From positions 1-64,000 of the IMG/VR virus record IMGVR_UViG_3300020037_009644: a stretch of 64,000 nt of DNA; one strand, 5' to 3'. This DNA is from a virus. Taxonomy: Duplodnaviria; Caudoviricetes. Shown piece after piece: positions 354 through 60,777 of the stretch. The position numbers and the translations under genes are program-made. The notes beneath the pieces are model-generated. The model searched no databases and was not told the origin of the DNA. It worked only from the letters and a program-made list of their open reading frames with translations. How positions within the stretch are numbered: position 1 is the stretch's first letter; every line of letters starts with the position of its first letter.

Positions 354-980
354 ATGAACGAACACGATTTACTATTCAGATGTCATTGCTTATCAGACTT
401 TGCATCTACATCAGCAGAAGAAAATAAAAATCCATATTTCGCTACGTTGAAATCTATTGAAAAAGTACAAAGCGAATTAGAGACATTAAAACAAGCAAAA
501 GCTATTGAAGCCAGAAAGGAGTTATTAATAGAATTAAACGCTAAATTAGAAGAATACGAACCTTTTAAAGATAAAGTATACCTTTCTAAAACAGCGCACA
601 AAAGAATACTTAAAATGGCTCGTGAGATTAAGTATGGTATACGTGAGAATTTAGAAAATAAATATGTATTAAAAGGCTTAATGAATGAAGAAGATGCTAT
701 TTCACTTTGGTCATATGTTTCTGGAAAATTCCTTACAAAAAAATGGCGTGGATTGGAAGGTAAGCTTCAAAAATTAGCGGACAAGGCTGCTATTTCCGAA
801 GAGGCTTATTTTCTTTTGAAAATGGGGGATCTTTTTCGGGAAAACGGAAAGACCAATGTCCCGATGGAGCACCGGAATCATCTAATCCTAATTCAGGAGG
901 TATATCTAGATTTTTACGAGGAGGAGCGGGGATCGCTTAAATTGTTTTTCGACGAGGTTGCGAAGGGGATCGGATCATGA
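354..980 (+). CDS. Probably chimeric ORF: phage exonuclease-like N-terminus fused to an unrelated helical C-terminus with the FFxEV tag
   Basis: N-part (FRCHCL...LSKTA...YGI...NKYVLKG...EEDAI) resembles YqaJ/lambda-exonuclease N-termini; base composition shifts near nt 740; ends LFFDEVAKGIGS. Confidence 0.5.
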   Translation: MNEHDLLFRCHCLSDFASTSAEENKNPYFATLKSIEKVQSELETLKQAKAIEARKELLIELNAKLEEYEPFKDKVYLSKTAHKRILKMAREIKYGIRENLENKYVLKGLMNEEDAISLWSYVSGKFLTKKWRGLEGKLQKLADKAAISEEAYFLLKMGDLFRENGKTNVPMEHRNHLILIQEVYLDFYEEERGSLKLFFDEVAKGIGS

Positions 981-1771
981 TTCTTGGAATGGATAGCGAT
1001 TATTTCTATAACGATATCGTCGACGAGATCCTCGGGCTGGGGTTTTATGAGATCGGGTGCCTAATTCCGAGGTTCGTCTTCTCGAAGAGAGAACTTTCTT
1101 CGAGCTGGATCTCGTCGAACGCAAAGAGTCAGCGAGATAAGGTTATCACAAGCATCGAGCATGTTATGTTTTGCGCCCGGGGGATGTTTGGAGAGATGAA
1201 CTATGTCTTCAGCTCGATCGAATATGATTTGTCGTCGGTCAGACAGAAAATTGTTAGTTTAAAAGAGTCATATGGAAAAAGATTCAATTATTGTCTTCGG
1301 GACATTTACCGCCATATTAACGAAATAATTCGCAAGCTTTCAATTTATTTAATTCCAGCCCTTCGTGAAAGAAAGAGGATCCGGAGCGAGATTCCGAATG
1401 AGATAATGGTGGAGAGCGAGCATCTTCGGGAGAAATATTGGGAAATTGCAGCGCGAGAGAGGGCGATGTTTCAGCTTTACCATTTGCCGAATCCGGCATC
1501 CGAGGAGGTTTTTATTCTTGGGCTCTCCTCTATTCCCTATATTCAAATTTTGAACAATTTGATTTGGCTAGGAGTTCATTGGGAGGATCGAAAGATACTT
1601 TCGATAGGATTGCCGTACGATAATATGGAAGGTAATGTTGTTTTCAACATGATCGATCAAAGAGCTATGATCTTTGAAAAGCTAAATTACCAAATGAATC
1701 GGTTCGAGATATTGGAGGGAAGTCGGAGCGCGGCTCCTTTCTTTAGGGAGGTTTTGAGTGAAAATTGTTAA
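977..1771 (+). CDS. Hypothetical protein with C-terminal F[YF]xx[FLIV]L tag
   Basis: 264 aa ORF, ATGA overlap with the previous gene, ends PFFREVLSENC. Confidence 0.7.
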   Translation: MILGMDSDYFYNDIVDEILGLGFYEIGCLIPRFVFSKRELSSSWISSNAKSQRDKVITSIEHVMFCARGMFGEMNYVFSSIEYDLSSVRQKIVSLKESYGKRFNYCLRDIYRHINEIIRKLSIYLIPALRERKRIRSEIPNEIMVESEHLREKYWEIAARERAMFQLYHLPNPASEEVFILGLSSIPYIQILNNLIWLGVHWEDRKILSIGLPYDNMEGNVVFNMIDQRAMIFEKLNYQMNRFEILEGSRSAAPFFREVLSENC

Positions 1772-2525
1772 TGGCTTGCCTGAGAATTTCCTACCGAAGG
1801 AGATTCTTGATGATTTTAACGAGATGCGGGGGCTGGGGATCGATCTTGGAGATTTGATCCCCGGTAAAATTTTGTCTGGAACCGGGAGGTTTTTGTCGAG
1901 CCAGGAAGAGTTCGAAGAGGCTTGGAAATCCTATTTGGCGGCAGGGGATAAAGCAACTAATATCTTGTCGGGCTCGTTTGGATTGAGCTATGATGTTTTC
2001 AAAAAAGATCTTGAGATCTTGATAAAATGTTCGAAAATTCCAAATAGTGACGACGGAATCTATACCCTGAAAAACTTTGAGAAAAGGATCGTTGGATGGA
2101 TTAGAAATTTTCTAACCAACAATCTTCCTGAGCTTAGGAATATTGTCGCGAACCAGCATCGGGGGCATGAGGATCTTGATCTTAGCCTTATTTCCGGAAA
2201 AGATTTGGCTTTGTTTCGGTTCGGAATCTTTGATAAAGGCACGATTGACATCAGCAACATCTTGAAAAATTTGAAACTAAGATTGTTCTTGATCAATACG
2301 ACCGGAGGGAGATCCCCGAGGACGGACCCCGCTCCGTCCGATGGTAAAGAAGGCGGTCTGTTTGTCTTTAACCCGGCGTCCGGGATGACCTTTTTTGATT
2401 TTCTTGATTATTTGATCGAAAGAGCCGAAGTGAGATTGGACGAGGTCAGATCTGAGCAGGAGATTAAATTCTCAGCTCCGTTCTATATCGATTTCTTGAA
2501 GGAGATGGTGTCCAGTGGAGATTGA
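1758..2525 (+). CDS. Hypothetical protein with C-terminal tag
   Basis: 255 aa, GGAGG RBS, ends PFYIDFLKEMVSSGD. Confidence 0.7.
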   Translation: MKIVNGLPENFLPKEILDDFNEMRGLGIDLGDLIPGKILSGTGRFLSSQEEFEEAWKSYLAAGDKATNILSGSFGLSYDVFKKDLEILIKCSKIPNSDDGIYTLKNFEKRIVGWIRNFLTNNLPELRNIVANQHRGHEDLDLSLISGKDLALFRFGIFDKGTIDISNILKNLKLRLFLINTTGGRSPRTDPAPSDGKEGGLFVFNPASGMTFFDFLDYLIERAEVRLDEVRSEQEIKFSAPFYIDFLKEMVSSGD

Positions 2526-2946
2526 AGAATGGCTTAAGGAGGGTGGGCACGTAATCTTTGTCCCGGTTCTCCCGGCGGCGAAAATGGGGATGATCGATCT
2601 TGATAATTTGAAGAGAGCGATCCCTAACCATGATTACATTGCTTCTCAAGATAATTTTTGCTTTCAATATGGGGTCGCTCTTAATTTCTTGAAAAAGAAT
2701 GACAAGACATTTGAGATGAGCGAAGAACTGAAAATCCGATTATCTGATATTATTGACCAGATCAATCAGATGACCGTTGAGAATGATTTTTCAACTCCAT
2801 TGGGTATCGTATCCAAGAGCTTTTTAATCCTTCACGATATTTTGGTTGAGTATTACCTTGGGTATGTCAAAAATGTCGTCGATCGGTTGATTCCGAGCTG
2901 TTCGTCATTTTATTCTGATTTTTTGGAGCAATTTAAGAATGATTAA
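2515..2946 (+). CDS. Hypothetical protein with C-terminal tag
   Basis: 143 aa, ends SFYSDFLEQFKND. Confidence 0.7.
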   Translation: MEIEEWLKEGGHVIFVPVLPAAKMGMIDLDNLKRAIPNHDYIASQDNFCFQYGVALNFLKKNDKTFEMSEELKIRLSDIIDQINQMTVENDFSTPLGIVSKSFLILHDILVEYYLGYVKNVVDRLIPSCSSFYSDFLEQFKND

Positions 2947-3547
2947 TACAAAGGAAATTTTGAATTCCCATCAAGCGTATCTTGATTGCAAATTATCGTT
3001 TAAAGATTGTCTTTCTTTGGATAAAATAGAAGAATTTATCGAAGATTCTTGGGTTTTTGGTGTTAATAGTAGTAATTGTTCTGAATATGCCAAGTTAACC
3101 CAGACCCTTGGGGAATTAAATATTTCTTGGTTAGATAAGAAGGAGCTTTATGAAAATATTCACGTCTTTAGTCCAAAAATAATCTTGACGGGCTTTACTT
3201 TGCCGAAAAATTTTCTTCCAAGATATGAAGAGCCTCTTTTTCTTGCGATAGAGTATTATTATGTTTTGCTCTCGAATGCCAGAGAGATTTTTTCCGTCGA
3301 AATGAAGGATTCGGAGGCGAAGTCCGAATATCTTGACCAGATTGATCAATCTTTGAACATCCTATGCTCTCAGGATATCGAAGAGGTCGTTTATACGGTC
3401 TATTACCTTCAGACATTGCTTGATGATTTGCTGAGTTATTATTGCAGGGAAATTAGAATGGATCTAATAAAAAATAACGAAAGCGAGAGGCTGAAGATCG
3501 TTTCTTTTTTCCAGGAGATTATTGAGTCAAATGCCTCTTCTTGTTAA
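2939..3547 (+). CDS. Hypothetical protein with C-terminal tag
   Basis: 202 aa, ends SFFQEIIESNASSC. Confidence 0.7.
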   Translation: MINTKEILNSHQAYLDCKLSFKDCLSLDKIEEFIEDSWVFGVNSSNCSEYAKLTQTLGELNISWLDKKELYENIHVFSPKIILTGFTLPKNFLPRYEEPLFLAIEYYYVLLSNAREIFSVEMKDSEAKSEYLDQIDQSLNILCSQDIEEVVYTVYYLQTLLDDLLSYYCREIRMDLIKNNESERLKIVSFFQEIIESNASSC

Positions 3548-59896: not shown

Positions 59897-59897
59897 A

Positions 59898-60089
59898 TTA
59901 AATTTCGTTTAAGAATTGTTGATAAAATCTTTGCGTTTCTTTAAACCTGTCATATCTCATCGCATAAAGATAAATGGTAAAATCATCTATTAGTTTTTTG
60001 TTTTTTGAATATTGTCTTTTAGAAGCTTCTTTTCTACACATTTTTAGAATGTAAGTTATCTTTCTAATAGGATCAAGCATTGTTGTCAT
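59898..60089 (-). CDS. Small basic protein with C-terminal tag
   Basis: Ends RFYQQFLNEI. Confidence 0.7.
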   Translation of the reverse strand: MTTMLDPIRKITYILKMCRKEASKRQYSKNKKLIDDFTIYLYAMRYDRFKETQRFYQQFLNEI

Positions 60090-60222
60090 TTTGATTCCAA
60101 AAGAAATTGTTGATAAAATTCAGATGATACCTTATCGATGACATAGCTCGAACATATGATTTGTCGATCATCAAAGAAAACAATGATGGCATACTAATTT
60201 CAGAGCAAGGATTAAAACTCAT
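60086..60222 (-). pseudogene. Frameshifted small gene with C-terminal tag
   Basis: ATG at 60222 (TAATG overlap) is out of frame with ...DKVSSEFYQQFLLESK*, whose TGA overlaps the next ATG. Confidence 0.6.
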
Positions 60223-60500
60223 TATGTATTTTCTTCGACAATCTCTTGATAGAACCTCTGAGTTTTGAGTAATTCTTGTCGTCTTATGTTAATGATATTG
60301 TTCAAGATGATTTTTATTAAGTTATGATGTCGTTTATATGTAACGCTTCCCTTTTTAACAACCGAAATTGGATATTGAGCAAATGCATCAAGGACATCAA
60401 ACAAATTTTGATCTTCTTGCGCCATGATTTCTAGACGCTTCTCAAAAGAAGCCCGATCAATCATAGGAAATCTACGCACTTTGATATCAGAGAGTGTCAT
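60222..60500 (-). CDS. Small protein with C-terminal tag
   Basis: Ends RFYQEIVEENT; resembles the next gene (I.A.ED...++LD...Y+...LI..I+). Confidence 0.7.
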   Translation of the reverse strand: MTLSDIKVRRFPMIDRASFEKRLEIMAQEDQNLFDVLDAFAQYPISVVKKGSVTYKRHHNLIKIILNNIINIRRQELLKTQRFYQEIVEENT

Positions 60501-60777
60501 TATTATTCAAAAAATCTTGATAGAATAATCTTGCCACTCTCTTTGAGAATTCTTTTTTAACAGAGAAGATGATTGAACCAATTAGCTTTGCGTTGCTCTT
60601 ATATTTGATTTTCGCCATTGTCTTATAATCTTTTACTTCTTCGGCGGAAACAAAATCCAAGATTTCAAGACAGCGCTGATCTTCCAGAGCTCGTATGTCG
60701 CGCACAACCAACTCTTGTAAAGTTGGAGGTTTGATTTGGCTAAAGTAGCTACTACCAAAGTATCCGTCAATTATCAT
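60487..60777 (-). CDS. Small protein with C-terminal tag
   Basis: Ends LFYQDFLNNNDTL. Confidence 0.7.
   Translation of the reverse strand: MIIDGYFGSSYFSQIKPPTLQELVVRDIRALEDQRCLEILDFVSAEEVKDYKTMAKIKYKSNAKLIGSIIFSVKKEFSKRVARLFYQDFLNNNDTL

Follow-up and report, generated by a model that had tools for sequence, protein, structure and literature searches.

We describe a short C-terminal peptide that is shared by mostly unrelated proteins of an uncultured phage, represented by IMG/VR record IMGVR_UViG_3300020037_009644. The stretch analysed, hereafter the window, makes up the first 64 kb of one contig of 153,447 bp (G+C 40.7%). This record has a linear classification and an estimated completeness of 36% (CheckV), and it is therefore regarded as a fragment of the genome of a huge phage. 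The peptide, referred to as the tag, has the core F-[YF]-x-[DE]-hydrophobic-hydrophobic, and it is best explained, with moderate confidence, as a portable docking helix that is read by a common partner. The tag would then act at the protein level, as a helix on a polar tether rich in Ser, Thr, Ala, Lys and Glu, placed 3-13 residues from the free end of at least 21 fast-evolving, lineage-specific accessory proteins, each of which would insert it into the same hydrophobic groove of one partner.

The motif was scored as F-[YFW]-x-[DEQNS]-[FLIV]-[LIVMA] in the last 20 residues of proteins called greedily from the open reading frames (ORFs) of the whole contig, a set of 181 genes and 49,091 residues in which starts are uncertain and C-termini are certain. 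It is present in 18 of the 181 genes (19 if the small ORF at 9713-9877 is included), compared with a mean of 0.40 and a maximum of 3 in 1000 residue shuffles. Internal matches number 7, with 5.7 expected from the shuffle mean, and the excess is thus purely C-terminal. This comparison of C-termini with shuffled and internal segments had been suggested in an earlier sequence-only reading of the window, and the 20 sites listed there were all recovered at their ORFs. An unbiased scan for C-terminal three-residue patterns ranked FY...L and F...FL first (p ~4e-12), and the same scan of five other huge-phage records gave top patterns of 1e-5 to 1e-9, with the exception of a GWI family in the record G010. 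A profile built from 19 tails added two members on the minus strand, a split copy at 60086-60193 and a gene at 65503-~65745. Chance origin of the motif is essentially excluded. All carriers lie within 0.3-66 kb of the contig, in six places and on both strands. Core enzymes are free of the tag, as the earlier reading had held, and so is the half of the contig that encodes structural and glycan functions (66-153 kb).

Position 1 of the core is invariably F, followed by Y, F or W, a free residue (x), D or E (or Q, N or S), one of F, L, V or I, and one of L, V, I, M or A. Often the core is succeeded by K, E or N, then by E or D, and then by a hydrophobic residue at position 9. Tags have a net charge of about -1 and a mean helical hydrophobic moment of 0.46, compared with 0.30 for 11-mers from the protein bodies and 0.21 for strand periodicity. 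Judged from this periodicity, positions 1, 2, 5, 6 and 9 would line one side of a short helix that is acidic and amphipathic. The linker, taken as the 12 residues upstream of the motif, is rich in S, T, A, K, R and E and depleted in hydrophobic residues. Because 3-13 variable residues lie between the motif and the stop codon, the free carboxylate is outside the signal. Members of two flavours, FYxD[FL]L and F[FY]xE[VI]x, occur interspersed in the arrays. D at position 4 occurs with F or L at position 5, and E with V or I (Fisher p 0.0014), while Y at position 2 also goes with F or L at position 5 (p 0.001). Within-motif covariation of this kind would follow from adjacent side chains fitting into a common pocket.

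A signal in the nucleic acid, such as a U-rich translation enhancer, a downstream ribosome-binding region or a recombination site, could have produced the peptide as a by-product. Tag DNA does lie just upstream of the next start codon in most cases: the start of the next co-directional gene precedes the stop codon of the carrier by 3-55 nt in 15 of 19 cases and follows it by 0-3 nt in three more. In addition, the K-E codons after the motif often spell AAGGAG, resembling a ribosome-binding site of the overlapping next gene. However, close to gene ends (45 nt or less) the back-translated pattern is in frame in 19 cases and out of frame in one, and this frame lock largely refutes a nucleic-acid signal, which we consider highly improbable. 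The distance to the next start is variable, and the tag is kept at 26964-27314, where no co-directional gene follows. Synonymous codons are used (TTT 13 and TTC 6 for F1, TAT 10 and TAC 2 for Y, five different codons for L6), as are the two chemically equivalent flavours. Among same-species variants of 14 carriers (84-99% identical), no core-motif change was seen in 175 cells, compared with 207 changes in 4384 body cells (4.7%); variant cells are non-independent, and the direction of the contrast is clear. The sole tag change among the variants, I to A, falls on the free x position. Selection at the protein level, which the sequence-only reading had proposed, is borne out by the synonymous codon variation together with the frame lock and the unchanged core.

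Bodies were compared by BLASTP and HHalign after removal of the tag. There is one clear paralogue pair (19577/20016, probability 99%) and a loose group of five proteins with LHRxxGPA repeats, whose look-alikes in the Atlas are phage proteins, some with MORN_2. The remaining 13 bodies are singletons, so the carriers fall into ~15 body classes and had rightly been called mostly unrelated. Pfam recognises only one body, the WGR domain at 9251-9574, and PHROGs yields a single weak partial match, to an exonuclease, for the carrier at 354-980.

The carriers could also be a relic of one family, descended by tandem duplication, in which the helix is kept for the fold of each protein or for self-association (e.g. 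oligomerisation) and has no external reader. Their organisation in tandem arrays, with one paralogue pair and a five-member repeat group, would fit such a history, as would the array-specific residue at x, which is Q throughout the 59-60 kb array. Carriers are also orphans outside the species, which makes fast divergence plausible. Nevertheless, such a relic is unlikely, given that 13 bodies lack similarity even by HHalign, that lengths vary from 54 to 264 aa, that the bodies include a recognised WGR domain and a Cys-rich protein, and that polar linkers of variable length separate the tag from the bodies. Within the paralogue pair the tag is retained and the linker has diverged in length and sequence. 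The carriers occupy six islands on both strands, and other paralogue arrays of the genome (43.7-45.1 kb and 49.5-53 kb) have no tag. A conserved backbone protein (7195-7794) also argues against a family relic: its orthologue in a tag-less relative has a poly-Glu tail instead, and this old protein, a possible weak extra member of the set, looks to have acquired the handle.

The two untagged paralogue arrays have endings of their own. Three of the four members of the first (43749-45142) end in [LI]-E-F-E-[DE], and several members of the second (49509-53046) have tails of the type ...[IL]CE[ED]S; both may be further family-specific tails.

Homologues of the contig's helicase (37-49% identity) mark a large clade of phages of 300-480 kb. 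The nearest reachable relative, G001 (301 kb, 71% complete), is collinear with the contig over 6-137 kb, and the structural proteins are 45-58% identical. Homologues in G001 were found for none of the 18 tagged genes and for 67 of the 163 other genes (p 0.0002). By this comparison, all carriers lie in lineage-specific islands within a conserved backbone. The five-gene array at 59.5-60.8 kb, for example, is an insertion: the genes on either side of it, one of 57 aa and one for a zinc-ribbon protein, are neighbours in G001 and L086. G001 is free of C-terminal tags, whatever their spelling. The tag profile gives 14 bits or more for 18 of the 181 proteins of the contig, and none above 7.7 bits among 5,134 proteins of a related set composed of G001, G007-G010 and 160 loci (80 helicase-based and 80 AAA-based). 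When the 19-tail profile was run against 1.84 billion representatives, the only above-threshold match was to a repeat protein that contains RFYSDLL eight times, and this was taken as a chance match. Searches by megablast and tblastn revealed no close relative among GenBank phages, and no match was obtained in IMG/VR single-protein scans with the helicase, the sheath and the protein P0147, or in scans of JGI metagenome contigs. Same-species variants of the contig's proteins are found on contigs of up to 255,899 bp; the Logan/ENA contigs of 255,899 and 196,334 bp bear the carriers P0283-P0290. For the carrier at 1758-2525, the sole homologue among 5.8 billion proteins is a 92% variant with the tail FYADFL. 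No earlier description of such a tag emerged from full-text searches of the literature.

A separate C-terminal pattern was observed in G010, a 116-kb record with an orthologue of the AAA ATPase discussed below. Ten small tandem proteins in this record have G-W-I near the C-terminus (p 2e-21; e.g. L005:18969-20639), and they are probably a paralogue family.

The hubs named in the sequence-only reading were capsid packaging or ejection, a compartment, a clamp, and a protease or ATPase. Sliding-clamp families of the gp45 and DnaN types (PF09116, PF02916 and PF00712) have no match in the contig (36% complete), and PF02916 and PF00712 have none in G001, G004 (96% complete) or G005 (100% complete) either. 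Neither microcompartment shell (PF00936) nor encapsulin (PF04454) was matched on the 36%-complete fragment, which also has no genes for ClpP, ClpX or AAA_2. One candidate is encoded directly after the largest tag array, an AAA ATPase at 4700-6043. Its structural model, with a predicted local distance difference test (pLDDT) score of 79, has YjoB of B. subtilis and mitochondrial Bcs1 as best matches over the whole length, and these are chamber-forming AAA proteins that handle folded clients (PMC9565160). No counterpart of the ATPase was found in G001. Records that bear an orthologue (L001 and G007-G010) have no tag of any spelling except for the GWI paralogue family in G010, and the case for the ATPase as reader is weakened because orthologues occur without the tag. 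It is a weak candidate and, in our estimate, distinctly unlikely to be the reader.

The same ATPase, of the classic clade and with a degenerate pore loop, adjoins a DNA glycosylase of the Fpg/Nei type (4700-6886). Orthologues of the ATPase, the closest of which (P0002-P0004) are 38-43% identical, are found in a number of IMG/VR records of huge-phage and giant-virus-like type, where a 340-aa protein that shares the C-terminal W-Y/I-L ending of the glycosylase is often close by.

Turnover rather than assembly would be the purpose if the tag were a shared degron or timer, a tail that sends the accessory proteins, or targets bound to them, to an unfoldase-protease such as host Lon or Clp, or a ClpP like those of the relatives. 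The tail is exposed, rich in aromatic residues and tethered, and bodies resembling binding modules would suit adaptor proteins. Bona fide ClpP (E ~1e-54) is encoded in G001 (53116-53637), G004 (333268-333789) and G005 (410693-411244), in each case with no detectable ClpX-type AAA_2 partner, and the missing part of the present genome may hold a ClpP gene as well. Yet the motif is not at the extreme C-terminus, unlike ssrA-type, Tsp/PDZ-type and other degrons read through the carboxylate, and its 3-13 trailing residues are variable. No ClpP, ClpX or AAA_2 gene was seen on the fragment, and the relatives that do have ClpP lack the tag. The strict F1 and the covariation of D/E4 point to a specific groove and not to generic hydrophobic exposure. 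A role in degradation is thus unlikely.

Several known systems use short peptides in a comparable manner. Internal proteins IPI-III and Alt of T4 carry an N-terminal capsid targeting sequence, MKTYQEFIAE, which is cut off by the prohead protease. As with the tag, one peptide is found there on polymorphic, unrelated accessory proteins in variable islands, and the spelling is partly similar (YQEFI compared with FYQEIV and FYQDFL). Unlike the T4 sequence, the tag is C-terminal in all copies, and no carrier is part of the structural module. Encapsulation peptides of microcompartments and cargo-loading peptides of encapsulins are terminal amphipathic helices on linkers that address unrelated proteins to a shell; the tag differs from them in being shorter and acidic, and the fragment has no BMC-domain or encapsulin gene. 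MIM helices of ESCRT-III dock on the MIT domain, a three-helix bundle, of the AAA ATPase Vps4, and the XB peptide of SspB docks on the N-domain of ClpX. The tag resembles both as a putative tethered C-terminal helix on many proteins, with an AAA ATPase gene following the largest array. In contrast to those ATPases, the phage protein is Bcs1/YjoB-like, with a chamber-forming N-domain that is neither MIT-like nor zinc-binding (PMC9565160).

The sequence-only reading had pointed to the clamp-binding tails of T4. In T4 and RB69, the proteins gp43, gp55 and gp33 bear interchangeable hydrophobic-acidic C-terminal epitopes on tethers that bind the sliding clamp (PMC2988020). Like these, the tag is a short hydrophobic and acidic peptide on a variable tether in unrelated phage proteins. 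The T4 epitopes, interchangeable and read by one hub, have three carriers, compared with at least 21 here. While the T4 set includes the replicative polymerase and the late sigma factor and co-activator, the carriers here are accessory orphans; the sigma-like protein of the phage (58490-59131) and the core enzymes of the fragment, among which no polymerase was identified, have no tag, and residues trail the motif. Since no clamp gene was found in the fragment or in complete relatives, and the sigma-like protein is untagged, the T4 analogy holds in form only. The bacterial beta-clamp motif QL[SD]LF has a different spacing, and most carriers lack a Q before the aromatic pair.

A docking helix with a common reader would also suit the variable bodies, which have the look of binding modules (WGR, MORN_2-like repeats, a Cys-rich finger, coiled coil). 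The partner would gather the carriers, or the carriers would bring their own targets to the partner. The reader could be a host protein or a phage protein special to the lineage, and its gene may be in the 64% of the genome that the fragment does not cover. Helix formation, binding and a single reader are what we infer from these patterns. The sequence-only reading had proposed a portable address label that docks accessory proteins onto one hub; the label is supported by protein-level selection, portability, amphipathic periodicity and the restriction to accessory carriers, and the single hub is putative. The hub may be one for capsid loading, a compartment, a protease or an ATPase.

Several results weigh against a docking helix with a common reader. 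Single-sequence AlphaFold modelling of the WGR carrier places a helix at residues 86-105 in a model of low confidence (pLDDT 47), which lends it weak support. For the K-E positions that flank the core, part of the constraint may come from the RNA, in the form of the downstream ribosome-binding site, given the AAGGAG spelling and the overlapping start of the next gene. The tag has spread partly by tandem duplication, as the array-specific Q at x indicates. No reader was found on the fragment among the clamp, shell, encapsulin and ClpP/ClpX families searched, and no tag that is the same or co-varies was detected in the related phages reached (G001, G007-G010 and the 160 loci).

A more specific form of the docking-helix reading is possible but doubtful, namely a protein-addressing system of the lineage's own, in which a dedicated phage-encoded reader would collect some 20 or more interchangeable accessory proteins through the tag helix. 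The reader would be the AAA ATPase or a protein from the unsequenced part of the genome, and it would load these proteins into a compartment or the capsid, or deliver the host targets bound by them to a machine for remodelling or proteolysis.

Orphan genes of unknown function number in the hundreds in huge phages, and a shared handle groups about one tenth of the genes of this fragment into one functional set. The islands that hold the carriers are inserted into a backbone shared with the nearest reachable relative, which is tag-less. A 10-residue peptide is usable as bait for the hub, and a single point mutation, F1A or Y2A, would control for all carriers at once. A host protein as hub would make the tag the mark of a takeover node; with a phage protein in that role, it would point to a new sorting or adaptor system. 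Proteins could also be recruited in infected cells with the tag as a portable tool. The carriers and associated genes are listed in Table 1.

Table 1. Tag-bearing genes of the phage contig and associated features (contig positions, which equal window positions up to 64,000).
Position	Strand	Feature	Tail	Tail position (nt) or remark
354..980	+	Tagged gene, 208 aa	FFDEVA	945-962; 5 trailing residues
977..1771	+	Tagged gene, 264 aa	FFREVL	1739-1756
1758..2525	+	Tagged gene, 255 aa	FYIDFL	2481-2498
2515..2946	+	Tagged gene, 143 aa	FYSDFL	2908-2925
2939..3547	+	Tagged gene, 202 aa	FFQEII	3506-3523
3522..3914	+	Tagged gene, 127-130 aa	FFQEVM	3867-3884
3898..4362	+	Tagged gene, 154 aa, LHRxxGPA (MORN_2-like) repeats	FYRDFL	4327-4344
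4700..6043	+	Bcs1/YjoB-like AAA ATPase		Immediately follows the largest tag array; weak reader candidate
7195..7794	+	Backbone protein, 199 aa; possible weak extra member	LLYSDLVE	Extreme C-terminus; tag-like with L replacing F1
9251..9574	+	Tagged gene, 107 aa, WGR domain (Pfam E 2e-13)	FYSDLL	9533-9550
9713..9877	+	Tagged small ORF, 54 aa, overlapping both neighbours	FYQSFL	9827-9844
9861..10289	+	Tagged gene, 142 aa	FFDDII	10233-10250
18943..19599	-	Tagged gene, 213-218 aa, LHRxxGPA repeats	FYSDLL	18961-18978
19577..20071	-	Tagged gene, 148-164 aa, coiled-coil-like body, paralogue of 20016-20456	FYSEVV	19595-19612
20016..20456	-	Tagged gene, 146 aa, paralogue of 19577-20071, diverged S/T-rich linker	FFAEIV	20058-20075
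21583..21999	-	Tagged gene, 138 aa, LHRxxGPA-type body	FYSNFL	21601-21618
26964..27314	-	Tagged gene, 116 aa, LHRxxGPA-type body	FWSDFL	27000-27017
59465..59896	-	Tagged gene, 143 aa, Cys-rich (CxxC pairs) body	FYQQFL	59486-59503
59898..60089	-	Tagged gene, 63 aa	FYQQFL	59910-59927
60086..60222	-	Split member	FYQQFLLESK	In 35-codon frame 60086-60193
60222..60500	-	Tagged gene, 92 aa	FYQEIV	60237-60254
60487..60777	-	Tagged gene, 96 aa	FYQDFL	60508-60525
65503-~65745	-	Small LHxxGPA-repeat protein, just beyond window	FYQQLL	

In the split member, the stop codon of the tag-bearing frame is ATGA-coupled to the next gene, and the start codon and N-terminal part are in another frame (60073-60222); the split is a frameshift, a sequencing error or recoding. 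Directly downstream of the tag array on the helicase side are a sigma-70 region-2 factor and a Zn-ribbon protein (58490-59462), a pair that is conserved and helicase-adjacent in G001 and L086. Scans for sigma-70-type promoters stayed at background level, and no timing of expression can therefore be inferred.

Within or beside the tagged islands are genes for a calcineurin-like phosphoesterase (20458-21138), a 2H phosphoesterase (22540-23082) and an Hsp20 small heat-shock protein (25598-26005), none of which has a homologue in G001. The same is true of a pentapeptide-repeat protein of 359 aa (8147-9226, Pfam E 7e-20) between two tag arrays, which may be a DNA mimic.

The fragment further encodes a DnaB-type helicase, ribonucleotide reductase, a sigma-like factor, a zinc-ribbon protein, the Fpg/Nei-type glycosylase, the classic-clade AAA ATPase, a TubZ-like tubulin, a tail sheath, a collagen-like fibre and many homing endonucleases. 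Genes for homing endonucleases of the GIY-YIG and HNH types are unusually dense early in the contig (16646-17641, 33880-35256, 37073-38053, 42016-42882 and 53907-54920). A full-length quinolinate synthase, NadA (45139-46080, Pfam E 1e-117), has no counterpart in G001 and looks like an auxiliary gene of NAD biosynthesis. The TubZ-like tubulin is encoded on the minus strand at contig positions 68444-70024 (Pfam Tubulin E 1e-13, TubZ-like_C E 4e-10) and is 56% identical to its homologue in G001.

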